Positions 13,419 to 48,953 of a stretch of DNA of 58,711 bases are shown here, piece after piece (position 1 is the first letter of the stretch; the number at the start of each line of letters is the position of its first letter). A program made the translations under genes and the position numbers. Under the pieces are notes generated by a model, which saw only the letters and a list, made by a program, of their open reading frames with translations, did not search any database and had not been told where the DNA came from. The stretch is from Alphaproteobacteria bacterium (GTDB lineage Archaea > Nanobdellota > Nanobdellia > Woesearchaeales > UBA9642). The stretch covers positions 1-58,711 of the forward strand of contig DASPMU010000108.1 of assembly GCA_035626895.1 (NCBI GenBank). The letters are read 5' to 3'.

Positions 13419-13480
13419 ATTAAGAATTATATTTCTTTAATTATCGATAATTATTTAAATATTGATTCTCGAAATTGAGT

Positions 13481-15805: not shown

Positions 15806-16801
15806 ATGAACCTAGATGATTATTCTTACGAGCTTCCAGAATCACTTATAGCCCAACATCCTGCAGACCCTAGAGATTCTTGCAAATTGATGATTATTGG
15901 CAAAAACAAAATAGAACATGGCATCTTTCGAGATATTCTTAGCCAGTTCAGCAAAGGAGATATCTTGGTTTTGAATAATACCAAGGTAAAGCATTCTAAA
16001 TTACTAGGCAAGAAAGAATCAGGAAGCGCTGCTGAAATAACATTGCTCAAAAATATCTCTGCAAATATTTACGAAGCAAAAATAAAGACGAAAAATCCAC
16101 TTGTTGGAACTAAGATCATTCTTCATCATGCAACTGCTGAAATAATAATGCAGAAAAACATCGATACATTCGTTGTCAAATTAGATAACAAAAATGCATT
16201 GAAAGATGCCGTGATGCCTTCACCTCCTTACATAAAACATGTTGTAACAGATAAAGAATACCAGACAGTTTACTCTGATAAGAAAAAAGAAGGATCTCTT
16301 GCAAGCCCGACTGCAGGGCTTCATTTTACAAAATCACTTCTTGCAAAAATCCAAAAGAAAGGAGTCAAGATTGTTTACATAACGCTTCATGTAAGCTATG
16401 GAACATTCAAAAATATCGAGGATGTTAAAACATACGTCATGGAGCCTGAACATTATGAAATATCAAATCAGGCAGCGAAAATAATCAACAATAGAGACAA
16501 AAAGAAAAACAGATTGTTTGTTGTCGGAACAACAACACTCAAGGCTCTTGAAACAAGCGCTTCAAAATCAGGAAAAATAATTGCCGGCTCTGCAGAATCG
16601 ACATTATTCATTTATCCTCCTTACAAATTCAAATCTGGGACTGACGCATTGATAACTAATTTTCACCTTCCAAAATCAACTTTATTGCTCCTTACGTGCG
16701 CATTTGGAGAAAGAAAAAGAATATTGGACGCATATCATGCCGCAATAAAAAATAATTATAGGTTTTATAGTCTTGGCGATTCTATGATAATATATAAATA
16801 A
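15806..16801 (+). CDS. queA: S-adenosylmethionine:tRNA ribosyltransferase-isomerase
   Basis: Colinear with bacterial QueA: YSYELPESLIAQHP, LASPTAGLHFT, VVGTTTLKALE, ITNFHLPKSTLL, YRFYSLGDSMII. Confidence 0.85.
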   Translation: MNLDDYSYELPESLIAQHPADPRDSCKLMIIGKNKIEHGIFRDILSQFSKGDILVLNNTKVKHSKLLGKKESGSAAEITLLKNISANIYEAKIKTKNPLVGTKIILHHATAEIIMQKNIDTFVVKLDNKNALKDAVMPSPPYIKHVVTDKEYQTVYSDKKKEGSLASPTAGLHFTKSLLAKIQKKGVKIVYITLHVSYGTFKNIEDVKTYVMEPEHYEISNQAAKIINNRDKKKNRLFVVGTTTLKALETSASKSGKIIAGSAESTLFIYPPYKFKSGTDALITNFHLPKSTLLLLTCAFGERKRILDAYHAAIKNNYRFYSLGDSMIIYK

Positions 16802-26005: not shown

Positions 26006-27199
26006 TTACTGAATCTGCTTGAACATCATGCCACTGAACTCATTGTTCATCATTGCCTGAGTTTTCTGGGATAAAGCGCCCGTAGATAAAAATAAGCAAG
26101 GCATTTTCTTGTTTTGCGCAAATATCAATGCCGGGGCAAGATCTGCGTCTGTTATTGTAGTCTTGTCTTTTGCTTTGCAGAATATATATTCGTTAGTGTT
26201 ATGATTTTTTAATATTAAGTTGTATTCCGTTTTCTTCAGTTTTTCTTTGCTTAATAGATCAAGACCGTTTGTTGTTATGAAATTTAGTATGACTTCATAG
26301 AAATCTTTTTTATTAGGATCGCGGGCAGGCTTGGCTTTAGGAATTTTCTCTTTTGCTTCCTTGTGTTCTGAAGTCTTATGTTCAGCTTGTTTGTGTTCAA
26401 CATGTTCCTTATGAACTCTTGGATGAGACTCGTGAGCATGTTCTGCCTGATGCGTATGTGAAGTAGAATGCGTTCTGGTATGATGAGTCTTATGTTCTTC
26501 ATGTGTATCCTGGGATAATTCTTTTGGAATCTCTGAATGAACTGCAGGAGCTGAATGTATTTCTTTATGCTCTTGGACTGCTTCTGGGACTATTTCATGC
26601 GCAGCTTTCGATAATGCTTCATCGATTACTTTGCTTGCCGGAATCGGTTCAGGAGAATGGATTTTGGGAGCTTCTGGTTCTGACGGTTTTTCTCCTGATT
26701 TCACTTCAGATATTATTGGAGATACAACAGGCGCTTTCTCCTGCAAGATTGGCTTCTGGACAATTTTCTGAGCGATGAGCTCCGCCTGCTCGACTGGAAC
26801 ATTGTAGAATCTCCAGAATAATACTTTGATCCCTGAATGCTCAATGTAGAAAGGCTTTGCAAAATCCCTTATAGTCTTTAAGGAAAATCTCGTCAAGGCG
26901 TCCTGAGATTCATCTCTTACGACCTTCTGGTCTTTTAGCATGACAAATGTTCGCCTGTCTTTCTCGTTCAAATGTTCGATATAATCTTCGAGTCTTGACT
27001 CGTGGTCAGGTATATAATATAGCGGAGATCCTCCGACCTTCAAGCTTGAAACCCTGATTTTTCCTGTAGTGATTATTGTTGAAAGAATTGCTCCGATTAT
27101 CATCGTGTCGCCGCCAACTTGCTTTACAATTTTTGCTGGCAGAGTCGGGCCCTGGCTTACGACTTCGAGAATTTTTTCTTTAGGTATATTTTGGAGCAT
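26006..27199 (-). CDS. Hypothetical protein: winged-helix-like N-terminus, His/Glu/Lys-rich linker, conserved C-terminal domain
   Basis: No family recognised. The linker is HKEIHSAPAVHSE...THHTRTHSTSHTHQAEHAHESHPRVHKEHVEHKQAEHK. Confidence 0.35.
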   Translation of the reverse strand: MLQNIPKEKILEVVSQGPTLPAKIVKQVGGDTMIIGAILSTIITTGKIRVSSLKVGGSPLYYIPDHESRLEDYIEHLNEKDRRTFVMLKDQKVVRDESQDALTRFSLKTIRDFAKPFYIEHSGIKVLFWRFYNVPVEQAELIAQKIVQKPILQEKAPVVSPIISEVKSGEKPSEPEAPKIHSPEPIPASKVIDEALSKAAHEIVPEAVQEHKEIHSAPAVHSEIPKELSQDTHEEHKTHHTRTHSTSHTHQAEHAHESHPRVHKEHVEHKQAEHKTSEHKEAKEKIPKAKPARDPNKKDFYEVILNFITTNGLDLLSKEKLKKTEYNLILKNHNTNEYIFCKAKDKTTITDADLAPALIFAQNKKMPCLFLSTGALSQKTQAMMNNEFSGMMFKQIQ

Positions 27200-29733: not shown

Positions 29734-29898
29734 GCACATTGCCGACGCTCGCATAGTTTGTTTAATCCTATGCCGCAAACGATTCTAGACGCAAAGAAAT
29801 TTTATAAATTTCTTGCGCACAAAATGCGTACATGCATTTTGTTGCGTTAATCGAATATTGAATCGAGAACTCGCCAGGCGGCAATGCTGCTGGAATAG
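29734..29898 (+). repeat. Hairpin-ended intergenic element, long copy with ~70-nt insertion
   Basis: Starts GCACATTGCCGACGCTCGCATAG and ends TCGAGAACTCGCCAGGCGGCAATGCTGCTGGAATAG. The core is partly degenerate (..GATTCTAGACGCA). Extra hairpins at 29794-29814 and 29815-29847. Confidence 0.8.
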
Positions 29899-29905
29899 TA
29901 TTCTT

Positions 29906-32900
29906 TTAACTCAAGCTCAATATCCAGCTGCTTAGCGAGTAGTAGTATCTTGCTGCAGTTCCTAGAGGAACATCTAAGTATAGATATATTGATTCGTTGC
30001 CGTATGTAGAGTCAGTGGTTCTTGGAAGAGTTGCGCTTGTTATATTGATGAATGTATCATTGATTAAAACAATTCCTGAAGATGAATTCGTGGAATTTAT
30101 CCTGAAGTTGCTTGCAAGCAGCCTGTCAGTTGAATTTGCCAAGTCGTACGCTTTTAGCTGCACAAGTGTATACTGGAAGTTTCCAGTGTTATTTAATATT
30201 AATTCTCCGGCGAAGGAATTGTTTGAACCTGCAGTTAATGATCCTGTGTTCAATAAAGCAGTATTGAGGGATATAGCGTACAATGTGTTGTATGTAAAGC
30301 TTGTTGATATATCTTGAGTATAATTATTATTGTTATCCATTATTGAAATGTTCACAGACCATGCTCCTGCTTGGTCATAGTAATACATTCCGACAACGCA
30401 GCTTATGTTCTGCGCTGTTGAATTTATAGGCGTTCCAGTACATGACGCGTCAGCACTCTGCCTGAATACTCCGGAGTTATTTACTATTACTTTTGCAGAA
30501 CTCACATCTATTGTTGCATTGCCTGCACCTTGATTGACAGTGAAATTGAATGAAACATTTTTGATTGATGATTCTAGTGGATCTATGGATCCTACTGAAA
30601 CGATGTTAGTAATGTTTATCATAGAAGAAATTATTGAAGTTGTTGCAGGACCAAAGTCTGTTCCCTGATTTAGCCACTTGCTACTATTAGTCGACTGGTT
30701 CAATGGATAATCACTTCCCGTATCTCCAAAGCCATCAGAATTGCTGTCGTAAATATCATAATTTTCAATATCGATATAATAGTTGCCTTGAGCATATCCT
30801 CCTACTGTTGTGTTGTATTGGTTCGTTCCGTTAGAAGCATTCACCCAAGGACCATTGCCTGCAATAGTATTGTAATATATCGTGTTGTTTGAAGAGTTAA
30901 ATATACTTATATGAACAAGAGTATTGCTTGTAGTGTTGAGCCAGTTTTGGGAAATATTATTGTTATTTGATCCGCCGGAAATTCCTAAGGACGAAGCAGA
31001 TCCCGATACTGAAAGATTGTTTCTTGTTATCTGGTTGTCTGTAGAACCAACAGTTAGGCCTATTGCATCTGCGCCTGCTCCGCCTGTAGTTATGTTGTTG
31101 TCCATAAATATATTATTATCTGCGTTGTTTGCAATTATACCATACGAGTTGATATTATCTGAAAGCATGGTGTTTCTTGTGATGTTGTTTCCTGAGGAAG
31201 TCAATAGATATATTATTCTTGCTGCAGCTCCTTGCGTGTATATGCTGTTGTTTTCTACATGGTTATTATTTGCTGAAACAAAGAAATAGATTCCATATGC
31301 ATCAGCGCCGCTGCTGTTCATAGTATTATTTATTATTTTGTTGTTTGAACTGGAGCTTATATAGATCAATATTGCATCTGCCTTAGTTGAGTGCATGATA
31401 TTGCTACTGACATTGTTTCTGCCTGATCCTGAAGACAATGAGAGCGCATAGGAAGAAGATCCGTTCATTGAAATAATATTGCTTATGATTTTGTTATTGT
31501 CGGAATTCGACAAGTATATTCCTAATGCTGAATTGTTCATCAAAGTAAAGTTATTGTTCTGTATTGTACCATTGTTAGTATTGTTATAATATATTCCGTA
31601 CATGAATCCATTGATGTTGCAATTCAAGACAGTCGTATTTGAAGAATTGGAATATATTCCTGAAGCTCCTGAATAATTATTTCCTGTGATTGAATATCCG
31701 AAACAATTTATTGTAACATTATGAGCAAATACATTCAGGCAAGTGCTGTTTGTTGAAGCAATATTTGCACTCAAATTAACTATAATGTTTGATGTAGTGA
31801 TGTTCTGGCATGAAACTATCTGTGAAGTAGTTTGTGGTCCAAAGTCCTCTCCGAAATTTAGCCATTTGCTGCTATTAGTAGATCTATTGAGAGGATATTG
31901 CGATCCTGTATCAGCCCATCCATCAAGATTGCTATCGTATATTTCGTAGTCAGTTATATTGACATAGTAATTACCCTGAGCAACTCCGCCTACAGTTATG
32001 TTGAACTGGTTAGTTCCATTAGAATCATTAATCCAAGGGCCTCCTCCGGTAAAGTTGTTGTAGTAGAAAGTATTATTGATTGAGGAAATTATCTGTATAT
32101 GCGCCATGGTTGATTTTAAAGTATTCTGGTATATTGTATTATTATGTGAAGAGGAAGATAAGGAAATTCCATAGCCTGAACTTCCTGTTGAATTGATGCT
32201 ATTTGATGTTATATTATTGTTTATTGAACTAAATAAAGAAATTCCATCGTTTGTAGTATTTATGTTGTTCTGTGAGATCGTATTATTTGCTACGGAACTT
32301 ATTATTACTCCAGGATATGCAGTATGTATATTGTTCTGGAACAAGAAATTATTGTTTGAACTACTACCGATCGATACACCATATGAAACTACTCCTGGAG
32401 CCGTCAGGTTATTATAAGCTATATAATTGTTATTGGAGTTCAAGAATAAGTATATTGTCGAAGCGCTTGTGCTGTCAGTCTTTATCCTATTCGCTGTCAG
32501 ATTGTTGTGGTTTGATCCCAAGACATATATTCCAATGCTGCTTTGACCGGTGGTGTTGATTTGATTTCTGGTGATTATATTCAAATCAGATCCTGAATTT
32601 AGGTATATTGCATCTGAAGATTCTCCTGTAGTCAAGACTTTGTTATCTGAAATAATAGTATTATTTGCGTCATTTTCCAGCATTATTCCAACTGCAGAGT
32701 TGTTGGATGCGGTTATGTTGCTACTCCTTATTGTTGAATTATCAGTTCCGTTGAAGTATATTCCATGCATGAAATTTGTTATCGTACAATTTACGACAGT
32801 TGTATTCTTGGAGTTTGAATATATTCCTGATGCAGCTGCATAATTAGTGCCGTTTATCGATCGGCCTGAACAATTTATCATGACATTATCTGCAAATACA

Positions 32901-35900
32901 TTGATGCAAGTCCTGTCAGTTGAATTAATATCCCTGTCAAGGAACAGGCTGGCTCCGGAGCTTGTTACATTCACGCATCCAGGGCTTGTATTGAAAGTGA
33001 ATATATCAAACATATTCATTGTCGAGGATAGATTATATCTGAAAGATATTATTGCTGATCCGTTTGTTGCATTAAATGTATAATTATTATAATAAGATAC
33101 AATTGTTCCATTGTTGAAATATTCTGAAACATTAGAATAGGCATATCCTGTCGATGCAGTTGTGAGGTTAATTACTGATGATTGATAATCGTAGACGCTT
33201 ATGACTATTCCTGATGCAGGAGTTCCTATCGTGTAATTGCTATAAGCTGCATATTTCCATTTTCTATATAAAGAAGATGAAGTTATATTTTCAGTTGAGT
33301 AAGTAGCATTGATCAAAGTAATATTGGATGATTCATATGCAGTTATATCCCTTGTTGAATTTCCGGAAATATTCAAGTCAACAAATGATATATTTGACGA
33401 ACTGTTTAATAATACAGCGTATGCATTCGAGCTGTTGATAAATCCTCCAGCAAGATAGATATTATCTGAATTGTTGAAATATATGTCGGCATGTATTTTT
33501 GATTTATTGGAGTTATTTATTGAAGTATAATTTATTACATTTGACCTGGAAGAATTTACAAACGCAAGTCCACTCATGTAATTGTTGAATGAATTTAGTG
33601 CCGTAATATTAGATCCTGTAGAATCTTCTATGTATACTCCATGCCATAGATTGTTATTTACTGAGACGTTTATTAAAACAGTATCGGAAGAAGTAGTTCG
33701 CAGAAGTATTCCTGAATATAAATTGTATTGGGAGGATATATTTACAAACCTGTTTCTTGAACTATCATAAAGTTCTATTCCGCTTGAGCAATTTCTCAGA
33801 TTTATGTTTGTGAAATTATTATCATCAGCGAAAGATCCTCCGATGCATGCAAAGAAGGTATCGCGTATAGTCATATTATTGAAGTCTGTTCCTGAGCTTG
33901 TGAGCGATAATCCTCGCGATACAACATTGCTGACTCTTGAATTATCAAGATTTGCGTAGAATCCTTCACCAGTACTCAAAGTCACATTTAGCCCGCTAAT
34001 ATTAGCTGAAATTACATGATACGTTTCAAGAGGAGATGGGCTATAGCCGCTTGCATTCATGAATGTAACATTTGTTATTCTTGATCCGTCAGCGTCGCAG
34101 AGGATTAATCCGTACATCGATCTGTTTGCAATAGTTACGCTGTAATTATAGAATTCAATATATGAAATTCCATCTCCGATGCTGTTGTTTATTACTATAT
34201 TATCACACGCGGCAGCATTAGGCGCATAAACGATCCTTGAAGCATCTATTATAGTATTATTGTACACATAGTTATTTGTTGAAGCAGAATTTCCTGCAAG
34301 GAAGTATATGAATATAGTAGGGCTTGATGCATTGTTATTCTCGACAGTATTGTTTAAGGATCCTTCTCTTAGTATTACGGAAGCTGAATCAGCATCTATC
34401 ATATTATTTGCAATATTTGTCCTGTTTCCGCTGATTGCAATTCCGTATGTGGAACCGCGTATAAGATTGTGCCTGATGCTGTTGTTTGATCCGTTCAGTG
34501 ATGTTGATCCGTACTGGCTTACAGTCATGTTGTTTCCGGAAATATTTGTAAACCATGCAATGGATGATCCTATTCCGTATGCAGCGGATATATTGTTGTT
34601 TAATACGCTAGAATAGTTCGAATTAACTAATCCTATGGCAGTTCCCGACGATGTACTGACATTTATTATGCAGTCTTTTACAGTTATATTGGATGCTCCC
34701 ATTCTTATTGCAACTCCAGTGAATGATGTACCTAGTATTGTATTCTGGTTGCATCTTAAAGTTACGTTCTGTGAAGTTATGTTTATGCATACATTTCCTG
34801 CAGGAATTATTGTCTGGTTTACGTCATATATTCCAGGGCTTGAGATATTCATGCATTCGTAGATAGGGAGATAAGGTTCTGATATATACGTAAAGAACTC
34901 AAACATGTTATTTTCTACAGTAATATTATGTTCACGGGAAATAACTTCTGATCCATTAGTAGCATTGAATGTGTGATTGGTGTAATGAGTATATAATGAT
35001 CCGTTATGAGTATATTCAGTCAAATTCACATAAGCGTATCCCTGAGCATTTGTTGTGAGATTAATCAGAGATCCAAGCCTGTTATATATGCTTATGTTAG
35101 CTCCGTCTAGCGGGAAGCCGCTTGTCAGATTAGTATGTCCTATGTAGTGCCATAATTTGTATGCAGATATGCTTGTTCCAGTAATATTCTCAGTCAAGTA
35201 GCTAACATTGATCAACGTTACATTTGTTATATTGTATCCTGAGAGCACAGTCAGACCGACAGTTGCGTTTCCTGACACATTTATATCTATGAGTGAAGTG
35301 TTGTACGAAGAATCTATGAATATAGCATATGCATTCGAGCTGTTGATGAATCCTCCAGATAGAGTTATGGCATTAGCAGAGCGGTTCAAGTATACATCTC
35401 CACGATAGTTTGTCTTATTCGAATTGTTGATTGAAGTGAAGTTAGTTACAATTATGTTTGTTGAATTTTCTATTACGATTCCTGCAAGCATGCTTTCATG
35501 TATATATGAAGAAGTTATATTGATGTTATTGGAATCTGATATGAATAATCCGAACTCGCTGTTGTTGTATGTTGTAAATCCGGTTAACGTATTTCGGCTT
35601 GATCTGTCAGTGAATAATACTCCATACTGCTCGTTATTGTATGTTGTAACATTGATCACAGTAGTGTTTTTGGCGCTGCTAAACGACATTCCGTTCAGGC
35701 AGTCATGAGCAAAGATATTTGTGAAATTATTGTAATTTGAAGACTGGACAACTATAATGCAAGATCCTCTGGATTGGATGATGCTGATATTATCGAAATT
35801 GTTGTAATCTGAGCCTGCAACATATAATCCATTCTGGAATCCTACTCCTACGATATTTGACATTCTTGAAGTGTTTACTGATGAAAGATAAATTGTGTAG

Positions 35901-38900
35901 CGGTAATTTTCTGTAGCGTTGATGCTAGTCATTGTAGCGTTTTCTAATTCGTAAGCTTCAATCGCGTTAGGCCTGTATGCAGAATAATTCATCATAGTAA
36001 TATTTGAAATGACAGAATTATCAGCATTACATAATATCAAGCCATGCAGAGTCCTGTTTGCAAGTACAGTGCTTGAATTGTAATATTCAATTATTCCCGA
36101 GCCTCCGCCTAGAGTGTTATTTGTGAAATTATTATTACATGCAGAAGTAGTAGAAGGACTATATACTCTTGAAGAATTATCAACGATATTTCCATAGATC
36201 ATATTTCTGCTTGAAGACATGACAAAGACAAGATTTGCCTTTAGCAGATAGTTTCCTCTGATTACGTTGCTGCTTCCGCTGCTTATTGTCAGGGCGTTGC
36301 TTGCGTTTGAGAAATTGTTATATTGGATGATATTATTGTCTCCGCTAATTATGACTCCATTATATCCGCTTGATGATCCAGTTGCATAGTTGTCGCTTAT
36401 TGTATTGTTGTTTCCAGTTATTGTTCCGGCTACATATCCGCCGCCTAGATTAATCATGCTGTTTCTTGAAATATTGGAGTATGAAGTTATTGAAGTTCCA
36501 ACGCCACGGTATGCAGTAACTGTATTATTAAATATAAGGGAATCGTTTGCATTCTGTATGATGAATCCTGTTGCAGAAGTATTCGTACTTATATTTACAA
36601 AGCAATTTATGACCGCATCATTGAATCCATTTAGCTGGAATACTGTACCTGTGAATGTTGTATTTGTAAATGATTGTCCGGAGCAGTTAATTACTACATT
36701 CTGAGCAGTCACATTGATGCATACATCTCCTATAGGAGTTATTGATTGATTGACATCATAATATCCGGGTATATCAATTGTCGTGCAATTAGATATTATT
36801 CCCATATATCCTGGGACTTCATATGTAAATACATCAAATATACTCAAGTCATTTGTAGAGTTATGGCGCGTGGATATTACAAGCGATCCATTTGTGGCAT
36901 TGAACGTGTGGTTATTATAATAATTTAACAATGATCCGTTGTTTACATATTCAGTGATGTTGGTATATGCATATCCGGCTGATGACGTAGTTAAATTGAT
37001 CAGTGATCCAAATCTATCGTATACACTTATATTTATTCCAGCTATCGCGGTACCGTTACTATAATTTGCATAGGCAGTATAACGCCACTTTCTTATCAAG
37101 GAATTGTTTATATTCTGAGCATTATTGGAAACATTGTCTCCAGTGTTCGTATAGGATACATTCAGGAAAGTCACGTTAGAACCTAGAATTATACTAATTC
37201 CCTTTGTAAAGTTGCCCGTAATGATCATATCGGCAAATGTGACATTCTGAGACCTGTTTGCGACAAATATTCCGTTGAGCGATGAAGTGGTATTCACTAG
37301 TCCTGATATGAATACTGACCTGTTTGAGGACCTATTCAAGTATATATCTGACATGCTGTTGGTGTAGTTGGAATTATTGTAAACAAAGAAATTAATGAAG
37401 GTATTATTTTGAGTATAATCAAGATATATTCCTGATCTCCTGTTAGATAAGATGTATGAGTTTGAAATATTGTTTCCTGAAGAAGGAACAGTGATGGATA
37501 TTCCGTGTTGCCAATTGTAGCTTGAATAAGTATTATTCAGCCTGTTTCCATTCAGGGTCAATACTATTCCTGATGCATTGTTGTATGTTGATGTAACATT
37601 ATCTAAATAAATATTAGAGGCATTAATGTTCACTCCATTCTGAGTGTTATAAGTCGAGTTGATCAGCGTGAATGTATTGTTAAATCCAGTTACATTCAGG
37701 CCGTGCAGGGTGTTGGCTACCAGCGTTATTGACGTGAAGTTATTATTTGAAGATCCTGATCCGATATGTATTCCGACGCCTGCAGAATAGTTGAATTTAG
37801 AATCAAATATTGTATTATTAGTGGAGTTCCACTCTAGCCTGAGTCCAGTGTACATTGCGTTAGTCGATATTTCAGATATGACTGCCCTGTCAGTTTTAGT
37901 CAGGATCAATCCAGTGTTTCTTGTGCTTGTAGTATTTCTTATCGTGATGTTGCTTAATACAGAATCGTCCGCGTTGCATAATTGTATTGTATAATTTATA
38001 TCTAGGTTTGAAAGGGATACTGAGCTATTATAGAATTGCACAACTGATATCACATTTCCATAAGTGTTGTTTGTAATGTTTTGATTGCATTGGAAATCCA
38101 TGCTAGGATCTACATAAATATTATATCTTACCGAATTATTAATTACGTTGTCATATATGATATTTCCTGAAGTGTTGTATACATATATTCCGTAAGCCGT
38201 GGCTGCGCTGATATAGTTGCTGAATACTGTATTGTTTACGCTGTTGTTTATTACTATTCCATGCCTTGAGGCTATCTGCACATTGTTGTTGTAGATCCTG
38301 TTATTTGCCCCCGTATTTGTAGTTATTACAGTTATTCCATTAAGGCCCCTTACTACAGTGTTGTTGTAGAAGTTATTGTTGCTTCCGTTAATGACTACAT
38401 TAGAGCTAGTCGTGCTTGCATTCATATAATTGTTGCTGAAATTATTGCTGTTTCCTGTAACTAGGGCTATTGATGAAAGTCCAAGTCCTGACAATAGCCT
38501 GTTTCCCGTGAAATTGCTAAATGAAGTATTGGATATTCCTATCGCAAATCTTGCAGTGATATTATTGTTTATTATAAGAGAATTATTGGAGTTAGCAAGA
38601 ACTATTCCATTTCCACTAGTAGCTACGCTGATATTAATATTACAATTTCTTACAGTCAAATTGCTTCTGTTAGTAAATATAGCAGTTCCGGTAAATGTGA
38701 TGTTTCTGATGAAGTTAGAGTTGCAATCTATTGTAACATCAGGAGCAGTAATATTTAAGCATTTAATAAAGTTAGGAGTGATTGACTGATTGAATGTGTA
38801 TATTCCTGAAGCAGTTATATCTCCGCATTGGAAAATTGTCGAGGATAGATTTGCAAATGGATCAATCACAAAGTCGAAGCTTATTCCTCCTGAATTTGGA

Positions 38901-41077
38901 GGAGAGGATATTTTAAGGTCGAAAGTATCCTCTGATCCTGTAAGATTAGTCAATAATATTTGGTATTTTGAATACATAGATACATTGTGGAACTTGGCAA
39001 TTGAAATATTGCTGCCTCTTTCATATACATCAATGACTGATATTTCTGAATTGTCAAATGAATTTGCATATATTGTGATATCATTATGAGACTGAAGATC
39101 TCTTTCGAACGTAACTCTCAAGTATTGTCCATCCGTCACATTTGCAAATTTCAAGTCTGTGTCATTGACTATTTCATAGACATTCTCTAGGAAATTTCTG
39201 TCTGAGTCAAGTATCATTGCGTCTGTTATGACAATTATTTCGAATGTCTGGTTGCTTAAGTGAGGAGCCGTCCATTCTATTAAATCATACAATGAATTGC
39301 CGTCAGTATCATATAGATTGAATTCTAGAGTTTTGTATACTATTTCTCCATCAGATAATTTTTCCATGTCTTCAGAATTTAATGTATTGAATCCATCTTC
39401 CTGCGACGCATCAGTAATTTTCCATCGTAAAATAATATCCTCATAATCTGAAACCTCCTGAGGCAGGCTAGAAGTTGCAGTAACGTCAACATAATGCATA
39501 TCAGAAGATAATTTGACTTGTTTTGTTGTGTCTTCTATTATTTCTTCAGAGATTTCAGGAGCTTCTGTATAATATTCTATCTCAATATAATCAGTCGGTT
39601 CATTGATAGTCAATATTTTATCTTCACCAGATATTGTTTCAATAATTGTCGAGCTAAAGTCTTCAGAGACTGCTGCTATTTGTAATCCTGAATCCTTGTC
39701 AGGCTTTTTGCTCTCTGATTTTTCTGTTTTATCATTTGATTTTTTGTATAATTCTTTCTTGCCCAAGCCTTCTCCATCTATTTCAGATACAGATATATTT
39801 GTAGAATCGGCAGGTATATCAAGAGAGATTCCAGTAATATTTTCATTGGATTTTATCCTCTTGACCCATTTGACAGGCTTTCCTACTGTTGCAGGATATT
39901 GCAATAGTTCAACGCTTACTGTAGTGTTAGAAACGTTGCTTGCGTTGATCGATATATTTATTGTCTCATTGAATATTTCTGTAGCATTGGTTTCATTGAG
40001 TATTTCATTTATTATTATCTCAGTTATGTTTATTGTTGCGTTTGTTTCGTTCAGTACAGGTTCAATTATTTCAGGCAATATCTCTTCCGGAATTATTTCT
40101 TCTAGTTCAGGGACTTTTTCTGCAATATATTCTACTGACTCTATGAATAATTCCGATCCATCGGATAACTCTACAATCAGCCTGTAATTAGATGAGTCCG
40201 AAACAGGAACATTAATGCTGCAAGAATCAGCGCATAAATCTTGGATGTAAGTATATTGTACTTGCTCTTCGATAATCTCTTCTTCGGCAGTCTCTTCTAT
40301 AATATCTTCAACAACTGTTTCATCTATAGTTTCATCCGTTGTTTCATGCATAATTTCAACAGGCTCTTCAAGAACATCAATAGTTTCTTCAGGTTGTTCG
40401 ATTTCTGATTCTGTCGACTCAGATTCTTCAATCGATGGTTCAACAGATTCTTCGGCGAGAACATCTTCATCTGATGACTCCTCGATGACTTCTTCGGTTG
40501 GTTCTTCAATTACATCCTGAGATGTTTCATCTGTTTCTTCAATTATCGATTCAATTACCGGTTCAATTGCTTCTGCCTCCGTAGATTCAGTGTTAAGAGG
40601 CTCCGCATCCGATTCGCCAGCCGACGATTCCGTTAATTCAGATTCATCTAATTCCAATATATCCATTCCGGTAATTGATGACAAGCCGCCTGATAAATCT
40701 GATTCGTCAATCAAGCTGCTATCTGCAACAAGTATTCTTTCTGTTCCTTCGCCAGAGTCAATCCAGATTTTGAATTCTCCAGAGTAACGGCCGTTTATTT
40801 TCACAGAAAGTATATTCGAGTATTGTTCTGTTGAAATTATTTCCTGCAGGGCAAGATCTTTTATCGTATTTTCAGTGTATATTTCTGCAATGTAAGATTC
40901 TACTGTTTCTGATTTATCATCAGATATCAGAAGGCCTGTTATCTTTGAAATTCCATCGCTGAAATCAGGCTTTACAACTAATATGAATAAGGATAACATT
41001 AATAGTACTGTTGCAACTAAAAGCAGCTTAGACTTCCAGTCTTTTTCTTTGTTTATTTTGTTATCTTGGTCGTACAT
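29906..41077 (-). CDS. Giant (3723 aa) cell-surface protein with right-handed parallel beta-helix (PbH1/NosD-like) repeats
   Basis: Single uninterrupted 11,172-nt ORF. N-terminal signal anchor LLLVATVLLMLSLFILVV. Acidic E/I/S/T low-complexity region. Very dense N-x-S/T sequons. Recurring ~22-25-aa turns of the type NNNIT..A..GI.L..S.NN.I.NN. Macro-repeats and DSNxDGxxD loops. Confidence 0.85.
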   Translation of the reverse strand: MYDQDNKINKEKDWKSKLLLVATVLLMLSLFILVVKPDFSDGISKITGLLISDDKSETVESYIAEIYTENTIKDLALQEIISTEQYSNILSVKINGRYSGEFKIWIDSGEGTERILVADSSLIDESDLSGGLSSITGMDILELDESELTESSAGESDAEPLNTESTEAEAIEPVIESIIEETDETSQDVIEEPTEEVIEESSDEDVLAEESVEPSIEESESTESEIEQPEETIDVLEEPVEIMHETTDETIDETVVEDIIEETAEEEIIEEQVQYTYIQDLCADSCSINVPVSDSSNYRLIVELSDGSELFIESVEYIAEKVPELEEIIPEEILPEIIEPVLNETNATINITEIIINEILNETNATEIFNETINISINASNVSNTTVSVELLQYPATVGKPVKWVKRIKSNENITGISLDIPADSTNISVSEIDGEGLGKKELYKKSNDKTEKSESKKPDKDSGLQIAAVSEDFSSTIIETISGEDKILTINEPTDYIEIEYYTEAPEISEEIIEDTTKQVKLSSDMHYVDVTATSSLPQEVSDYEDIILRWKITDASQEDGFNTLNSEDMEKLSDGEIVYKTLEFNLYDTDGNSLYDLIEWTAPHLSNQTFEIIVITDAMILDSDRNFLENVYEIVNDTDLKFANVTDGQYLRVTFERDLQSHNDITIYANSFDNSEISVIDVYERGSNISIAKFHNVSMYSKYQILLTNLTGSEDTFDLKISSPPNSGGISFDFVIDPFANLSSTIFQCGDITASGIYTFNQSITPNFIKCLNITAPDVTIDCNSNFIRNITFTGTAIFTNRSNLTVRNCNINISVATSGNGIVLANSNNSLIINNNITARFAIGISNTSFSNFTGNRLLSGLGLSSIALVTGNSNNFSNNYMNASTTSSNVVINGSNNNFYNNTVVRGLNGITVITTNTGANNRIYNNNVQIASRHGIVINNSVNNTVFSNYISAATAYGIYVYNTSGNIIYDNVINNSVRYNIYVDPSMDFQCNQNITNNTYGNVISVVQFYNSSVSLSNLDINYTIQLCNADDSVLSNITIRNTTSTRNTGLILTKTDRAVISEISTNAMYTGLRLEWNSTNNTIFDSKFNYSAGVGIHIGSGSSNNNFTSITLVANTLHGLNVTGFNNTFTLINSTYNTQNGVNINASNIYLDNVTSTYNNASGIVLTLNGNRLNNTYSSYNWQHGISITVPSSGNNISNSYILSNRRSGIYLDYTQNNTFINFFVYNNSNYTNSMSDIYLNRSSNRSVFISGLVNTTSSLNGIFVANRSQNVTFADMIITGNFTKGISIILGSNVTFLNVSYTNTGDNVSNNAQNINNSLIRKWRYTAYANYSNGTAIAGINISVYDRFGSLINLTTSSAGYAYTNITEYVNNGSLLNYYNNHTFNATNGSLVISTRHNSTNDLSIFDVFTYEVPGYMGIISNCTTIDIPGYYDVNQSITPIGDVCINVTAQNVVINCSGQSFTNTTFTGTVFQLNGFNDAVINCFVNISTNTSATGFIIQNANDSLIFNNTVTAYRGVGTSITSYSNISRNSMINLGGGYVAGTITGNNNTISDNYATGSSSGYNGVIISGDNNIIQYNNFSNASNALTISSGSSNVIRGNYLLKANLVFVMSSSRNMIYGNIVDNSSRVYSPSTTSACNNNFTNNTLGGGSGIIEYYNSSTVLANRTLHGLILCNADNSVISNITMMNYSAYRPNAIEAYELENATMTSINATENYRYTIYLSSVNTSRMSNIVGVGFQNGLYVAGSDYNNFDNISIIQSRGSCIIVVQSSNYNNFTNIFAHDCLNGMSFSSAKNTTVINVTTYNNEQYGVLFTDRSSRNTLTGFTTYNNSEFGLFISDSNNINITSSYIHESMLAGIVIENSTNIIVTNFTSINNSNKTNYRGDVYLNRSANAITLSGGFINSSNAYAIFIDSSYNTSLIDINVSGNATVGLTVLSGYNITNVTLINVSYLTENITGTSISAYKLWHYIGHTNLTSGFPLDGANISIYNRLGSLINLTTNAQGYAYVNLTEYTHNGSLYTHYTNHTFNATNGSEVISREHNITVENNMFEFFTYISEPYLPIYECMNISSPGIYDVNQTIIPAGNVCINITSQNVTLRCNQNTILGTSFTGVAIRMGASNITVKDCIINVSTSSGTAIGLVNSNYSSVLNNNISAAYGIGSSIAWFTNISGNNMTVSQYGSTSLNGSNNSIRHNLIRGSTYGIAISGNRTNIANNMIDADSASVILREGSLNNTVENNNASSPTIFIYFLAGNSASTNNYVYNNTIIDASRIVYAPNAAACDNIVINNSIGDGISYIEFYNYSVTIANRSMYGLILCDADGSRITNVTFMNASGYSPSPLETYHVISANISGLNVTLSTGEGFYANLDNSRVSNVVSRGLSLTSSGTDFNNMTIRDTFFACIGGSFADDNNFTNINLRNCSSGIELYDSSRNRFVNISSQYNLYSGILLRTTSSDTVLINVSVNNNLWHGVYIEDSTGSNITALNSFNNYMSGLAFVNSSRSNVINYTSINNSNKSKIHADIYFNNSDNIYLAGGFINSSNAYAVLLNSSSNISFVDLNISGNSTRDITAYESSNITLINATYSTENITSSSLYRKWKYAAYSNYTIGTPASGIVISVYDYQSSVINLTTASTGYAYSNVSEYFNNGTIVSYYNNYTFNATNGSAIISFRYNLSSTMNMFDIFTFNTSPGCVNVTSSGASLFLDRDINSTDRTCINVFADNVMINCSGRSINGTNYAAASGIYSNSKNTTVVNCTITNFMHGIYFNGTDNSTIRSSNITASNNSAVGIMLENDANNTIISDNKVLTTGESSDAIYLNSGSDLNIITRNQINTTGQSSIGIYVLGSNHNNLTANRIKTDSTSASTIYLFLNSNNNYIAYNNLTAPGVVSYGVSIGSSSNNNFLFQNNIHTAYPGVIISSVANNTISQNNINTTNDGISLFSSINNNITSNSINSTGSSGYGISLSSSSHNNTIYQNTLKSTMAHIQIISSINNTFYYNNFTGGGPWINDSNGTNQFNITVGGVAQGNYYVNITDYEIYDSNLDGWADTGSQYPLNRSTNSSKWLNFGEDFGPQTTSQIVSCQNITTSNIIVNLSANIASTNSTCLNVFAHNVTINCFGYSITGNNYSGASGIYSNSSNTTVLNCNINGFMYGIYYNNTNNGTIQNNNFTLMNNSALGIYLSNSDNNKIISNIISMNGSSSYALSLSSGSGRNNVSSNIMHSTKADAILIYISSSSNNKIINNTMNSSGADAYGIYFFVSANNNHVENNSIYTQGAAARIIYLLTSSGNNITRNTMLSDNINSYGIIANNADNNIFMDNNITTGGAGADAIGLTVGSTDNQITRNNLSVSGSASSLGISGGSNNNNISQNWLNTTSNTLVHISIFNSSNNTIYYNTIAGNGPWVNASNGTNQYNTTVGGYAQGNYYIDIENYDIYDSNSDGFGDTGSDYPLNQSTNSSKWLNQGTDFGPATTSIISSMINITNIVSVGSIDPLESSIKNVSFNFTVNQGAGNATIDVSSAKVIVNNSGVFRQSADASCTGTPINSTAQNISCVVGMYYYDQAGAWSVNISIMDNNNNYTQDISTSFTYNTLYAISLNTALLNTGSLTAGSNNSFAGELILNNTGNFQYTLVQLKAYDLANSTDRLLASNFRINSTNSSSGIVLINDTFINITSATLPRTTDSTYGNESIYLYLDVPLGTAARYYYSLSSWILSLS
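30640..32990 (-). repeat. Two ~390-aa type-B macro-repeats inside the giant gene (approximate borders)
   Basis: Units begin C(I/L)NVFA(D/H)NV(M/T)INC.G.SI.G.NY..ASGIYSNS and end GPW(I/V)N.SNGTNQ(F/Y)N.TVGG.AQGNYY ... YDSN.DG..DTGS.YPLN.STNSSKWLN. Equivalent Cys codons lie at about 32976 and about 31811. Confidence 0.7.
32991..38870 (-). repeat. Three ~630-680-aa type-A macro-repeats inside the giant gene (approximate borders)
   Basis: Each unit starts ..C..I..PG(I/Y)YDVNQ(S/T)I(T/I)P...CIN(I/V)T(A/S)QNV and ends with (R)KW.Y.(A/G).(S/T)N...G....G..IS(V/I)Y....S(L/V)INLTT...GYAY.N(I/L/V)(T/S)EY..NG......(Y/T)NHTFNATNGS. Equivalent Cys codons lie at about 38828, 36786 and 34854. Confidence 0.7.
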
Positions 41078-42758: not shown

Positions 42759-42867
42759 GCACATTGCCGGCGCTCGTACAGATTCTTTAATTGTTTTCCG
42801 CCTACGAGTCTAGACGCATAGGATTTATATTTCGAGAACTCGCCAGGCGGCAATGCTGCTGGAGTAG
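42759..42867 (+). repeat. Hairpin-ended intergenic element, short copy
   Basis: GCACATTGCCGGCGCTCG ... TTTCCGCCTACGAGTCTAGACGCA ... TCGAGAACTCGCCAGGCGGCAATGCTGCTGGAGTAG, 40 nt after the stop of 41865-42719. Confidence 0.85.
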
Positions 42868-42934: not shown

Positions 42935-43744
42935 ATGTATTCATACATTGTGAAGAGAGGTGTGTTAGTAGTAGTTGTGTTCTTATTAGCTATTAGTTTC
43001 GTGCATGCTTTTGGTGTTTCAGCTCCGTACATTGAAGATAATACATTGAAAGTCAATTCAGGAAAAGTTCATAGTTATACGATAACTGTGCAGAACGGTG
43101 ATGAACAGGACTATTACGTCCAGATAAATCATTCGCACAAAGAAATAATTTCGATGGACGAATCTCTCAAATATGTTCCATCAAAGAGCTATAATACAAC
43201 ATTTACTTTCCTTGTGTCGATTCCTCAGGAAATACCTGCAGGAACAGAGTATAATATAGAATATACTGCAAGACCTGTAATGAACCAGTCCGATGCTGTA
43301 AGTATAGGCGTTGAGATAAAGAGAAACTTGAAAGTAATCGTGACTGACGCAGAAGGAAACATTCCTGTTGCAGACAGAAAGCCACTCATAAATATCAGTA
43401 ATAAGGGTGTTTTCAAGAGTATACTTAAGTATGCAGTAATACTTGCTTCGCTTGTGATTGCAGGATTTGTTGTTTACAGGCTTTGGACTGTATCTAAGGG
43501 AATTTCAGAAAAGATAAATAATAAAAAATCAAATTACACGTTAAGAGAATCAAGAAATATCCATCAATTGCATGATCTAATAAAGAAGATGTCTGATGAA
43601 GAATTTAATCTTCCGATTGTAAAACACATAATAAAGGATAAGCTTACTGAGTTCAATGAGCATCATGCAGCGCATAAAGTTATTCATGCTGAAAGATCAG
43701 ATATGATCAAAGATCTGGAGAATATAAAACAATTCCATAAATAA
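42935..43744 (+). CDS. Single-pass membrane protein with beta-rich ectodomain
   Basis: Signal peptide VVVVFLLAISFVHA, a beta-sandwich-like ectodomain, TM AVILASLVIAGFVVY, and a charged cytoplasmic tail. Confidence 0.4.
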   Translation: MYSYIVKRGVLVVVVFLLAISFVHAFGVSAPYIEDNTLKVNSGKVHSYTITVQNGDEQDYYVQINHSHKEIISMDESLKYVPSKSYNTTFTFLVSIPQEIPAGTEYNIEYTARPVMNQSDAVSIGVEIKRNLKVIVTDAEGNIPVADRKPLINISNKGVFKSILKYAVILASLVIAGFVVYRLWTVSKGISEKINNKKSNYTLRESRNIHQLHDLIKKMSDEEFNLPIVKHIIKDKLTEFNEHHAAHKVIHAERSDMIKDLENIKQFHK

Positions 43745-43750
43745 AGAGTT

Positions 43751-45583
43751 ATGAGCAAACTAAACCAAAAAAAGGATAATGCAAATCTTGTTTTGCTAGT
43801 TGCAATTCTATTAATTTCAATTCCGCAATCTAATGCTGCAACATTTGACGTTGGAGCGAGTATTTGCGCGCCTTTCTGGTTTTGCACCGGCTGGAGCGAG
43901 GGAGATTGCGGCACAAGAACTTGCATGGACTCAAATAGTTGCGGAACTAACTTTGGAAAACCTTCAGAATTCTTAGAATGCGACCAAGGCGGAGGAGGAG
44001 GTTCTGGCGGATCTAGTTCGAGCGGGACGGGAGGAATATGGACGAGTCTTCCTGACGGATACTTCACGCTGAACTATGACAATATTAGAGTGAGCGTGCA
44101 CCAAGATCAGATAACACAAAAAATAATCATAGTAAACAGTTCAACTCCGCAAGATTATGTACTTGAAATAATATATCCTTCTTCATACACTAAAGGGACA
44201 GAATTCTTGACCACAACATCAGCAAATAAAAGAATTGATGGAATCGGAGACTTCAACATAATAATAGATACGAGAAATATAGTCATTGGAACATACGTCA
44301 TACCGATAAAAGTATCAAATGGAAAGTACACTAAAGAAATAAGCATTAGTATAGATGTTCTTCCGGAAAAGAATGCTATAACTGATGTGTTGATTGATTC
44401 TAAATTAAAAACACTCGGAGTAGATAAAGAATTCCAAGTCCTGATAGAAACCAAGGGAAATGATATTGTCCTAGGAGACAAAATAACATATTCTATAATA
44501 GATCCTAAAGGAAATACCATCCTGGTTTTTGAAAGCGAAATATATGATCCGAAAGAAATAAAAGATGCTATAAAGATGCCCCTTGACATAACTGAAGGAT
44601 ATTATACATTAAATGTCCGGATCTCATCTGAAAGCGGGGAATATACTAAAAGTACTCAGTTTACAGTCCTTGAGCCAGAGAAATATTATCCAGTAATGCA
44701 ACAACCAAGAAGTTTCGACCTGATTAACTGGATTATTGGAGGACTTGTAATAGTATTGCTTATAGCAGTAGTAATCCGAAATACAATATTAAGCAAATCT
44801 ATAGAAGCAAGAAGATTCAGAAGCGAATTGAGATGGAGAAAAGAGAATATGAAGACGAAATTTATTGATTTAAGGATAAAGGAAAAAATAGACAGGATGG
44901 CAAAAATTTTCATGAAAAAAGACAAGACAGATGTCAATAAAAAGGCTGAACTGTTGAAACAAAGTTATGAAAAAGGATACATTTCGTTAAAAGAATACAA
45001 CAATGCATTAGATTCTGAAGGATATCACGTCGGACAATATGCCGGCACTGCAAGCAAGGCAATCGCAAAAGAGCTAAAAGAAGAAGAAAAAATGAAGGCA
45101 GAACTTGCTGCAGAGAAGAAAAAAGAAATTGAAGAATTGAAAAAGGCAGAGAAAAAATTAAAAGAGCAAGTCCTCGAGCACGAAAAAGAAAAGAAGTACG
45201 AAGAAAAGGAAAAGGCCTGGGAAGAAAAGCAAGAGCGAAAAGCAGAAGGAAAGGAAGAGAAAAAAGAAAAAGAGCCTAAAGAAGAAAAATTCGAAGAAAA
45301 ACCATTACTGAAATATGAAGTTCCGAAAGATAGCATCCTTGACAAGACTACAACAGCCCACGCATTCGTAACGCAAGACGGCGTGAAGCTTCATAGCGTA
45401 AGAGATTTGCTTCTTGCGTTAGACGCTATGCCTGACTGGGTATTCCATCATCATACAGGCCAGGGAAGAAACGATTTCGCAACCTGGGTCGGAGATGTAT
45501 TCAGATACTTAGATGTTGCTGAGGATATAAAGAGAGCAAGATCCAAGGAAGAAATGATCAAGGCTTTGAAAGCATATAATTAA
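43751..45583 (+). CDS. Single-pass membrane protein: Cys-rich N-terminal knot, Gly/Ser linker, Ig-like ectodomain, K/E-rich coiled coil
   Basis: CAPFWFCTGWSEGDCGTRTCMDSNSCGTNFG..EC, GGGGGSGGSSSSGTGG, TM LINWIIGGLVIVLLIAVVI, EEKMKAELAAEKKKEIEELKKAEKKLKEQ..., and a conserved-looking C-terminal ~70 aa. Starts 6 nt after the upstream stop. Confidence 0.4.
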   Translation: MSKLNQKKDNANLVLLVAILLISIPQSNAATFDVGASICAPFWFCTGWSEGDCGTRTCMDSNSCGTNFGKPSEFLECDQGGGGGSGGSSSSGTGGIWTSLPDGYFTLNYDNIRVSVHQDQITQKIIIVNSSTPQDYVLEIIYPSSYTKGTEFLTTTSANKRIDGIGDFNIIIDTRNIVIGTYVIPIKVSNGKYTKEISISIDVLPEKNAITDVLIDSKLKTLGVDKEFQVLIETKGNDIVLGDKITYSIIDPKGNTILVFESEIYDPKEIKDAIKMPLDITEGYYTLNVRISSESGEYTKSTQFTVLEPEKYYPVMQQPRSFDLINWIIGGLVIVLLIAVVIRNTILSKSIEARRFRSELRWRKENMKTKFIDLRIKEKIDRMAKIFMKKDKTDVNKKAELLKQSYEKGYISLKEYNNALDSEGYHVGQYAGTASKAIAKELKEEEKMKAELAAEKKKEIEELKKAEKKLKEQVLEHEKEKKYEEKEKAWEEKQERKAEGKEEKKEKEPKEEKFEEKPLLKYEVPKDSILDKTTTAHAFVTQDGVKLHSVRDLLLALDAMPDWVFHHHTGQGRNDFATWVGDVFRYLDVAEDIKRARSKEEMIKALKAYN

Positions 45584-48842: not shown

Positions 48843-48953
48843 GCACATTGCCGACGCTCGCATAGTTTGTTTTATCGTTTCCCGCCTACGAGTCTAGACG
48901 CAATTGCATTATTAAAATCGAGGACTCGCCAGGCGGCAATGCTGCCAGAGATG
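48843..48953 (+). repeat. Hairpin-ended intergenic element, short copy
   Basis: GCACATTGCCGACGCTCGCATAG ... TTCCCGCCTACGAGTCTAGACG (48879-48900) ... TCGAGGACTCGCCAGGCGGCAATGCTGCCAGAGATG, 57 nt after the stop of 48423-48785. Confidence 0.85.

Follow-up and report, generated by a model that had tools for sequence, protein, structure and literature searches.

A predicted 405-kDa sequon-dense beta-helix surface protein of a DPANN archaeon, its modular family and its conserved gene cluster

DPANN archaea depend on physical contact with a host, but few of the molecules responsible for it have been identified. In Nanobdella aerobiophila, a published study describes pectin-lyase-like proteins of 908–1,320 residues with 36–52 predicted N-glycosylation sites (bioRxiv 10.1101/2023.10.27.564410), and nanohaloarchaea encode giants such as SPEARE of Ca. 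Nanohaloarchaeum antarcticus and the 9,409-residue SVXNc_0300 (PMC10266531). Here we describe an open reading frame (ORF) of 3,723 residues on contig DASPMU010000108.1 (GenBank assembly GCA_035626895.1), positions 1–58,711 of which we call the window. This ORF is genuine and encodes a predicted cell-surface protein of 405 kDa in a DPANN archaeon of the Woese-, Pace- or Nanoarchaeota type. Its product, hereafter the giant, is predicted to carry five right-handed parallel beta-helix units of the NosD/CASH type as a passenger between conserved N- and C-terminal modules.

Like the Nanobdella proteins, the giant comes from a DPANN archaeon, is predicted to be extracellular and parallel beta-helical, bears many N-glycosylation sequons and has a proposed role at the symbiont–host interface. 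The Nanobdella proteins are each described with one pectin lyase fold, whereas the giant has five helices, 3,723 residues and 252 sequons. The comparison is one of fold class and sequons, and the available part of the study makes no mention of the N-module, the C-module or the five-gene cluster described below (bioRxiv 10.1101/2023.10.27.564410). The giant is a larger, multi-helix member of the Nanobdella-type beta-helix surface proteins, a kind that cultivated DPANN archaea are known to have. With SPEARE-type proteins it shares DPANN origin, giant size, a predicted surface location secured by a signal peptide or membrane anchor, variability between otherwise collinear genomes and a supposed part in host interaction. 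SPEARE-type proteins alone have Ig-like/fibronectin-like arrays, a VirB4/TraG-like ATPase domain and adjacent secretion ATPases. Such Pfam domains are absent from the giant and its neighbours, and we rejected a SPEARE-type assignment: the giant is a beta-helical protein of another family.

Bacterial giant adhesins include the RTX proteins LapA, MpIBP and SiiE and the two-partner-secretion (TPS) beta-helix proteins FHA and EtpA. They resemble the giant as predicted here: a long rod with exchangeable ligand-binding modules between conserved retention or export ends. The FHA/EtpA class shares the beta-helical shaft, and bacterial adhesins are likewise linked to dedicated regulators. The giant differs in having no RTX repeat, type I secretion signal, TPS domain or outer membrane, and no sequence homology to these adhesins was detected; it presumably leaves the cell through Sec and has an N-terminal anchor, and its dense N-glycosylation sequons are an archaeal feature. 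Periplasmic NosD/CASH proteins (PF05048, TIGR04247) are alike in fold class, not in function. The type-B repeats of the giant match most of the length of the NosD model, and both close on a GNYY...D.DG..DTG..YPL motif, which we take to resemble the ends of NosD/CASH domains. NosD proper (TIGR04247) was rejected, as it scored 50.9 bits against a cut-off of 300 and the window ORFs scanned included no nos genes.

The first-pass annotation of this DNA had called a single ORF of 3,723 residues spanning about one fifth of the window, and both statements hold. The frame runs from ATG to stop without an internal stop and covers 19% of the window, where the runner-up ORF has 610 residues. At the window's 35% GC, about 7% of random codons are stops, and the arithmetic probability of 3,723 open codons arising by chance is ~e^-270; chance origin is therefore impossible. 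A small-genome DPANN source, also proposed at that stage, agrees with the gene's surroundings and with its relatives. The neighbours are archaeal housekeeping genes, namely EndA (tRNA-intron endonuclease), RNase Z, FEN1, a class I Trp/Tyr-type tRNA synthetase and TYW2, and the window further encodes the primase small subunit and a proteasome-activating ATPase. Nearly all of the best 80 loci with the giant's N-module lie in metagenome-assembled genomes labelled Woesearchaeota, Pacearchaeota, Nanoarchaeota or unclassified archaeon; a few carry bacterial or Methanosarcinales labels, probably through errors of binning.

The architecture first read from the translation survives almost residue by residue, with one correction (Table 1). 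A Kyte-Doolittle scan found a lone hydrophobic segment at residues 14–40, where a signal anchor had been proposed, and none elsewhere; this segment is predicted to be a signal anchor or an uncleaved signal peptide, and the homologous N-terminus of a 1,054-residue protein at a syntenic locus (L081; L numbers denote the loci that we compared) also has a transmembrane (TM) segment. The domain of ~100 residues expected after the anchor is a conserved beta segment (residues 38–140), 29% identical to the N-terminus of the L081 protein. Alignments of the giant with two relatives, P0057 and P0053, start at residues 4 and 17, respectively. The acidic E/I/S/T spacer was confirmed and spans residues 141–271, but a small two-Cys element at residues 272–320 had been wrongly counted in it. 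This element, C-x2-[ST]-C-x-L, is shared by the family members at L021, L039, L050, L056, L080 and L081, and because it recurs in relatives, the acidic spacer appears to split an N-terminal domain. The block from residue 141 to 345 holds 73 Asp and Glu against 2 Lys and Arg. Beyond it, the predicted run of N-x-S/T motifs (10 sequons within residues 321–394), the distinct region of ~340 residues (a conserved module at 395–745 with homologues, here the N-module) and the C-terminal module of ~250 residues (3482–3723, conserved, here the C-module) were all recovered.

Self-similarity and Pfam searches of each piece likewise recovered the three type-A and two type-B macro-repeats that lie between these modules. 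A type-A repeat comprises a Cys-capped beta-helix of 530–585 residues and then a beta-rich tail of ~100 residues; in repeat 1, the right-handed helix spans residues 746–1330 and the tail 1331–1432. The type-A repeats are pairwise 37–40% identical (38.8% for A1 against A2, 40.4% for A2 against A3), and B1 and B2 are 49.4% identical. No Pfam family matched the N-terminal segment, the spacer, the A-tails or the C-module.

Profile hidden Markov model (HMM) searches, one of the checks proposed for the beta-helix assignment, came out in its favour. Against Pfam, the whole giant matches Beta_helix (PF13229) at 7e-39 (133.4 bits, cut-off 25.9) and NosD (PF05048) at 3e-34 (118.7 bits, cut-off 23.6). 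Each of the five macro-repeats singly exceeds both curated thresholds, with 54–68 bits for Beta_helix and 35–68 bits for NosD. The autocorrelation of Asn over residues 746–3470 peaks at lags 23 and 24, a recurrence that fits the expected length of a beta-helix rung, and Asn, Ser and Thr together make up 41% of the helix region. A parallel beta-helix rises 4.8 Å per rung, and the ~2,300 helix residues correspond to ~100 rungs, a rod of ~45–50 nm if extended. A PDB sequence search with the A- and B-type repeats returned no match.

The statement that sequons occur every few residues is borne out by counting. The giant has 252 N-x-S/T motifs (x not Pro), an excess of 2.0-fold (z ~14): shuffling the whole protein leaves 122 ± 9 of them, and shuffling within 30-residue blocks 128 ± 9. 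The excess is specific to the motif: the control motifs (the reverse motif, N-[ST] and N-x-x-[ST]) stand at 0.83–1.16 times expectation, N-x-T reaches 2.6 times and N-x-S 1.5 times, and N-x-[AG] is depleted to 0.45 times. It is present in the N-terminal part, the helix region and the C-module, each taken alone, and 27 sequon columns are common to all three A copies despite their ~38% identity. The ectodomain carries about two sequons per helix rung. At 6.8 sequons per 100 residues, the giant stands against 0.65 pooled over the 47 other window ORFs, and the only outliers in the window are the giant and a secreted neighbour, the small C-module protein (Table 1). The ratio of sequons to reverse motifs is 79:73 (1.08) in the 47 other window ORFs and 6,675:3,114 (2.14) in 81 family ORFs from other genomes. 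Because the excess is motif-specific and Thr is preferred, selection for dense AglB-type N-glycosylation is indicated, and the ectodomain of the giant is probably densely N-glycosylated.

Both ends of the giant belong to a wider family. For the N-module, of ~350 residues, a homology search returned 12 homologues, and a profile scan of one-genome-per-species GTDB contigs gave at least 477 tblastn-confirmed places, with 2–4 copies in several genomes. The best GTDB genome match is 37% identical, and identity to 11 aligned homologues is 33–42%. On the giant, the profile matches residues 390–745, and a family motif, P[HS]LS[NTE]QT[FY]E, follows the N-terminal TM segment. An AlphaFold2 (AF2) model of the N-module is all-beta with two subdomains (predicted local distance difference test, pLDDT, 65); no PDB fold matched at E ≤ 1e-3, and there is weak local resemblance to beta-sandwiches of the carbohydrate-binding-module type. 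Within it, a loop of the form D-x3-N-x3-D-x2-E-W (residues 590–602) has D201, D209 and E212 invariant and N205 nearly so in the alignment of homologues, and the relative P0012 gives a sub-threshold EF-hand_1 match on the same loop. Residues 590–601 may be a candidate Ca2+ site within a beta-sandwich, which we offer as a lead.

Within the big proteins, conservation is highest in the C-module. Its profile matches residues 3466–3723 of the giant at E 4e-82, and its invariants are a Cys pair, NNTGN and a terminal W-x-[IV]-x-[IV/L]-S. AF2 models it as two tandem Ig-like sandwiches (pLDDT ~90). The best PDB match is the CfaB-CfaB fusion 3f84 (E 3.6e-5, TM-score 0.37–0.39), with RbmA and antibody light chains scoring alike, and archaeal thread subunits are absent from the top 50 PDB matches. 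We rejected a specific pilin or thread subunit as unproven, the matches being to a generic tandem-Ig fold. Plain homology search returned short C-module fragments only; an exhaustive profile search gave 2,091 cluster representatives, 674 of them at E ≤ 1e-30. These fall into two populations, stand-alone proteins of ~270–330 residues and proteins of 400–4,769 residues that mostly carry the module at the extreme C-terminus. Giants of up to 4,769 residues are thus common in the family, and the size of ours alone is unremarkable. Its C-module is 60–63% identical to those of P0053 and P0057 and 35% (E 4e-31) to the small C-module protein of the window; big-type and small-type C-modules form distinct, old lineages. 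Neither module has a Pfam, NCBIfam or PHROG model, and together they mark out a large modular family that is missing from Pfam and NCBIfam.

Between the end modules, the passenger varies, and the nearest large relatives have the giant's ends but other middles (Table 1). The middle is a beta-helix in the giant and LamG, RCC1 or SBBP propellers, BNR or MG2 in other members. The exchange can be followed at a single chromosomal position: at L081 the order is EndA, a 364-residue gene, a 77-residue gene, RNase Z, the position of the giant, a helix-turn-helix (HTH) gene, the small protein and two membrane proteins, with LemA, an M48 protease and primase further along. The 1,054-residue protein encoded at the giant's position matches the giant in the first ~110 residues (29%) and the last ~280 residues (46%) only. 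Because L081 is collinear with the window yet differs in the middle, we take the locus to be chromosomally fixed and its passenger to be exchanged. A side observation concerns the L081 364-residue gene beside EndA, which is syntenic with and similar in size to a 397-residue gene of the window (26006–27199, minus strand); the latter has no Pfam match and a long His/Glu/Lys-rich low-complexity stretch (...HTHQAEHAHESHPRVHKEHVEHKQAEHK...).

The giant sits in a five-gene cluster, arranged in the window as two divergent units around a 195-bp AT-rich spacer. Upstream of it, the stop of an HTH gene overlaps the giant's ATG by 17 nucleotides, an overlap from which co-transcription and translational coupling of the two genes are probable. 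The small C-module gene begins ~790 bp upstream of the giant's start codon, and two membrane-protein genes follow it (Table 1). HMM and phmmer scans of all fetched loci recovered the same set elsewhere: an HTH protein of 170–200 residues, a big protein, a small C-module protein, a membrane protein of 180–270 residues and, less widely, a membrane protein of 550–630 residues. HTH (separate or fused), C-module paralogue and small TM protein occur together at L020, L021, L039, L044, L050, L056, L065, L080 and L081; L074 and L082–L084 hold part of the set, and L086 has the divergent layout likewise, judged by gene sizes and order only. Each complete ORF with both modules has a small paralogue within ~2 kb.

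The partner proteins are themselves recognizable families. Nine of the 14 HTH-family members match Sigma70_r4_2 (best E 4.8e-12). In six loci from independent assemblies (L020, L021, L039, L050, L065 and L080), the HTH is fused to the big protein behind the C-module, in the order terminal GSW-x-[IV]-x-[IV] strand, ~8–12 hydrophobic residues, a polybasic run (RRKRK or KKKKKKKK, for example) and HTH. The simplest reading of these forms is a short second membrane pass with the HTH cytoplasmic and the C-module membrane-adjacent, and the fused HTH may be a membrane-tethered transcription factor. The small C-module proteins, of ~280 residues, number some 30 relatives that are 47–72% identical to one another; as read from the alignment, they have a charged N-terminus, a long hydrophobic stretch and a probable cleavage site thereafter, with no class III (prepilin) signal, and we regard the window's copy as a candidate abundant envelope or filament subunit. 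Homologues of the 269-residue protein lie directly 3' of the small C-module gene at 13 other loci (L020, L021, L039, L044, L050, L056, L065, L074 and L080–L084). The 610-residue protein has an N-terminal hydrophobic segment (probable signal peptide), a Cys-rich ectodomain, a TM segment at about residues 320–352, a K/E-rich tail and a conserved C-terminal domain, and its homologues are strong in L081–L084 and weak in L021 and L080.

We infer from this evidence a function for the giant that we judge probable: a membrane-anchored, glycosylated adhesion or contact fibre of the modular family. The chain would be exported through Sec and retained in the membrane by its single N-terminal hydrophobic segment. 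The acidic, disordered spacer and the all-beta N-module would lift the passenger off the membrane, and the passenger would comprise three long helices, each with a beta-rich hinge of ~100 residues, plus two short helices. The tandem-Ig C-module would end the chain, and dense N-glycans would make the fibre a glycan-coated bottle-brush. The C-module may dock the far end of the chain onto a membrane-proximal assembly of the small paralogue and the two cluster membrane proteins. We suggest this docking because the C-module is the best-conserved part, has a stand-alone paralogue adjacent and, in some relatives, is fused to an HTH behind a hydrophobic and polybasic segment. The variable passenger would then be an exposed surface that binds ligands or glycans for attachment to a host or substrate, and the HTH protein would probably regulate, or be regulated by, the surface system.

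Several points weigh against the contact fibre. Envelope location and glycan occupancy are predictions from the sequence, and the beta-helix fold is predicted from profile matches and Asn periodicity. Asn-rich turns are intrinsic to beta-helices, and part of the Asn richness would be structural on that account; the flat control motifs nevertheless speak against a structural origin of the sequon excess. The window ORFs scanned include no gene for AglB or a glycosyltransferase; AglB genes are reported in a cultivated DPANN archaeon (bioRxiv 10.1101/2023.10.27.564410). The giant itself ends right after the C-module, without an anchor, and the two things on which membrane docking rests are the fused relatives and the gene neighbourhood. 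In the fused relatives the hydrophobic stretch has ~8–12 residues (~12–15 counted from the conserved Trp), short for a TM helix. The fold resemblance of the C-module is generic (TM-score ≤ 0.39), and a conserved distal end with a variable middle fits other geometries too.

A bolder extension of the contact fibre, which we regard as unlikely on present evidence, makes the giant the exposed arm of an undescribed but widely conserved DPANN contact-sensing module, its variable, adhesin-like ectodomain coupled physically through the C-module to a sigma70-region-4-like transcription factor. In the six relatives with a fused HTH, a short membrane-spanning segment would couple ectodomain to HTH, binding of a host or surface ligand would control gene expression, and the C-module paralogue and the two membrane proteins would form a docking platform. 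In the window's lineage the HTH would now be separate and translationally coupled.

Transmembrane transcription regulators are known in ToxR/TcpP and in ArnR and ArnR1 of Sulfolobus (PMC10269533, PMC6396743), and ArnR-type regulators control archaeal surface structures (PMC6396743). The six fused relatives share with this type a one-component, membrane-tethered arrangement attached to an extracellular domain. They differ from it in an adhesin-like ectodomain of more than 900 residues and in an HTH that is C-terminal after a very short hydrophobic stretch, and they are known from sequence alone; the window's HTH differs in being a separate, soluble protein.

Among the alternatives to an adhesion or contact fibre, the one that survives best, although we doubt it, is an extracellular polysaccharide-degrading array of the pectate-lyase/CASH type that digests host envelope glycans or environmental polysaccharide. 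Most pectate lyases, GH28 enzymes and tailspike depolymerases adopt the right-handed beta-helix, and the passenger is made of NosD/CASH-type helices of this hand. The window also encodes a GH15 (glucoamylase-like) protein (13475–14617, plus strand), and the Nanobdella authors proposed a degrading role for their pectin-lyase-like proteins (bioRxiv 10.1101/2023.10.27.564410). However, hmmscan at E ≤ 0.1 returned just the generic Beta_helix and NosD models, with no lyase or glycoside-hydrolase family, and the repeats lack a PDB sequence match. The LamG, RCC1, SBBP, BNR-like and MG2 passengers of relatives are binding, not catalytic, modules, and five sequon-saturated helices in tandem resemble a rod more than active-site clefts.

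Somewhat less probable still is a structural part of the envelope, a sheath, glycocalyx or S-layer-associated spacer that gives the cell protection or shape and has no part in host contact; the lattice would then consist mainly of the small C-module protein, with the giant as an accessory protein anchored to it. The strong conservation, constant length, secretion and sequon richness of the small protein suit an abundant structural glycoprotein, and the C-module is also the most conserved portion of the big proteins. According to the Nanobdella study, S-layer candidates have been proposed for DPANN archaea but none has been determined (bioRxiv 10.1101/2023.10.27.564410). Against a lattice part, the passenger is rapidly replaced at the syntenic locus (3,723 against 1,054 and 1,745 residues), which is typical of interaction or variable surface proteins; several paralogues per genome are unlike a core lattice, and the HTH regulator beside the giant hints that expression is conditional.

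We consider it very improbable that the ORF is an artefact, whether a chimeric assembly, a repeat array that collapsed or expanded, or a decaying pseudogene still open: related assemblies do often break inside the gene, with the contigs L083 and L084 ending in it and the Logan contig L085 after 453 residues, but this AT-rich DNA is free of stops over 3,723 codons, the family modules matched at the two ends are in frame and correctly ordered, base composition is uniform along the gene, and family members of similar size exist (3,735, 3,629 and 4,769 residues). The internal repeats are merely 37–49% identical as protein, and DNA repeats both long and near-identical are absent from the gene, the best being 102 nucleotides at 73% identity, so that there are no grounds for assembly collapse, which we rejected. 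In the independent assembly (Logan SRR7004167, L085), the neighbouring 284-residue protein is identical to the window's, and the layout is the same through a 202-residue upstream gene into the start of the large gene. DNA repeats, composition and this assembly, compared together, gave no sign of chimerism. The locus is systematically hard to assemble, and giants are therefore under-represented in public protein sets. A phage origin (tailspike or tail fibre) was also rejected, with no PHROG match for any structural part and flanks of housekeeping genes in conserved synteny.

Table 1. Features of the giant, its gene cluster and its relatives. Positions refer to the window unless a locus is named; aa, amino acid residues.
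Feature	Position	Strand	Remarks
Giant ORF	29906..41077	(-)	ATG to stop, 3,723 aa plus stop; 404.7 kDa unmodified, pI 4.36
Basic N-tail (aa 1-16) and single hydrophobic segment (aa 17-37)	40967..41077	(-)	Kyte-Doolittle
Conserved N-terminal beta segment (aa 38-140)	40658..40966	(-)	ends ...SSITGMDI; comparison with relatives
Acidic E/I/S/T low-complexity spacer (aa 141-271)	40265..40657	(-)	composition
Small two-Cys element (aa 272-320)	40118..40264	(-)	...DLCADSCSINVP...; conserved in relatives
Second spacer (aa 321-394)	39896..40117	(-)	10 N-x-S/T sequons
N-module (aa 395-745)	38843..39895	(-)	motif ...YDTDGNSLYDLIEWTAPHLSNQTFEII invariant; defines family
EF-hand-like loop D-x-D-x-N-x3-D-x2-E in N-module (aa 590-601)	39275..39310	(-)	alignment of homologues
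Type-A macro-repeat 1 (aa 746-1432)	36782..38842	(-)	Beta_helix 1.3e-18, NosD 1e-8 on piece alone
Type-A macro-repeat 2 (aa 1433-2076)	34850..36781	(-)	helix and tail; Beta_helix 4.9e-17, NosD 1.4e-14
Type-A macro-repeat 3 (aa 2077-2705)	32963..34849	(-)	helix and tail; Beta_helix 3.9e-15, NosD 1.3e-9
Type-B macro-repeat 1 (aa 2706-3100)	31778..32962	(-)	NosD/CASH-like, ends ...GNYY..YDSNLDGWADTGSQYPL; NosD 1.4e-18, Beta_helix 2.2e-15
Type-B macro-repeat 2 (aa 3101-3481)	30635..31777	(-)	NosD 1.3e-14, Beta_helix 1.6e-14
C-module (aa 3482-3723)	29909..30634	(-)	tandem Ig-like, Cys pair, NNTGN, terminal strand ...SSWILSLS-COOH; profile and AF2
Tandem sigma70-region-4-like HTH protein, 202 aa	41061..41669	(-)	upstream of giant
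Small C-module-only protein, 284 aa	41865..42719	(+)	divergent from giant; predicted secreted, 6.0 sequons per 100 aa
269-aa protein	42935..43744	(+)	N-terminal hydrophobic segment (probable signal peptide), beta-rich ectodomain, one TM; no Pfam match
610-aa membrane protein	43751..45583	(+)	no Pfam match; cluster partner
HTH-fused forms	L020 4186-8304; L021 1827-6986; L039 8257-12843; L050 9014-13579; L065 9044-13699; L080 5818-10581
Contig ends within gene	L083 1-304; L084 1-286; L085 1-213		related or identical assemblies
Relative P0057, 1,745 aa			N-region 34% over aa 4-740; C-module 63%; middle BNR-like (below Pfam threshold)
Relative P0053, 1,853 aa			N-region 32% over aa 17-740; C-module 60%; middle Gly_rich_2, Laminin_G_3, Big_13
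Relative P0064, 3,735 aa			N-region 33% over aa 598-746 only; C-module 47%; RCC1 and SBBP propellers, Laminin_G_3

Some observations on the surrounding DNA stand apart from the giant's function. An intergenic repeat of ~100–160 nucleotides occurs in three copies, all in plus orientation (29734–29890, 42759–42859 and 48843–48945), two of them lying immediately 3' of the giant's gene and of the small C-module gene. It contains an exact 22-mer, ACTCGCCAGGCGGCAATGCTGC, with three occurrences where none is expected by chance, and may be a miniature inverted-repeat transposable element (MITE)- or repetitive extragenic palindromic (REP)-like element or a small RNA family. The 306-nucleotide gap 3' of the giant is enriched in GC, and both of its strands fold well (z -4.6 and -4.3), with no Rfam match even at E ≤ 1. 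Elsewhere in the window, the gene at 15806–16801 (plus strand), among archaeal genes, matches Pfam Queuosine_synth over the full length (QueA; E 7e-101); because QueA belongs to the bacterial queuosine pathway, the gene may be horizontally acquired. A stand-alone Cas4/PD-(D/E)XK nuclease is encoded at 11031–12038 (minus strand), with no cas families among the ORFs scanned near it; CRISPR repeats were not searched for.

As far as limited literature searches went, the end modules, the exchange of passengers at a syntenic locus and the cluster with its regulator are undescribed. The end modules are search handles that, between the two, retrieve candidate surface proteins of Woese-, Pace- and Nanoarchaeota by the thousand, and the signature of sequon selection is an in-silico marker for exported proteins in uncultivated DPANN lineages. 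The cluster, consisting of a regulator, a giant, a small paralogue and two membrane proteins, with fusions in relatives, is a defined gene set for experiments. If the contact-sensing module is real, it would be an archaeal counterpart of signalling by membrane-tethered transcription factors. The exchange of the middle at a syntenic locus is the pattern expected of determinants of host range or substrate range.

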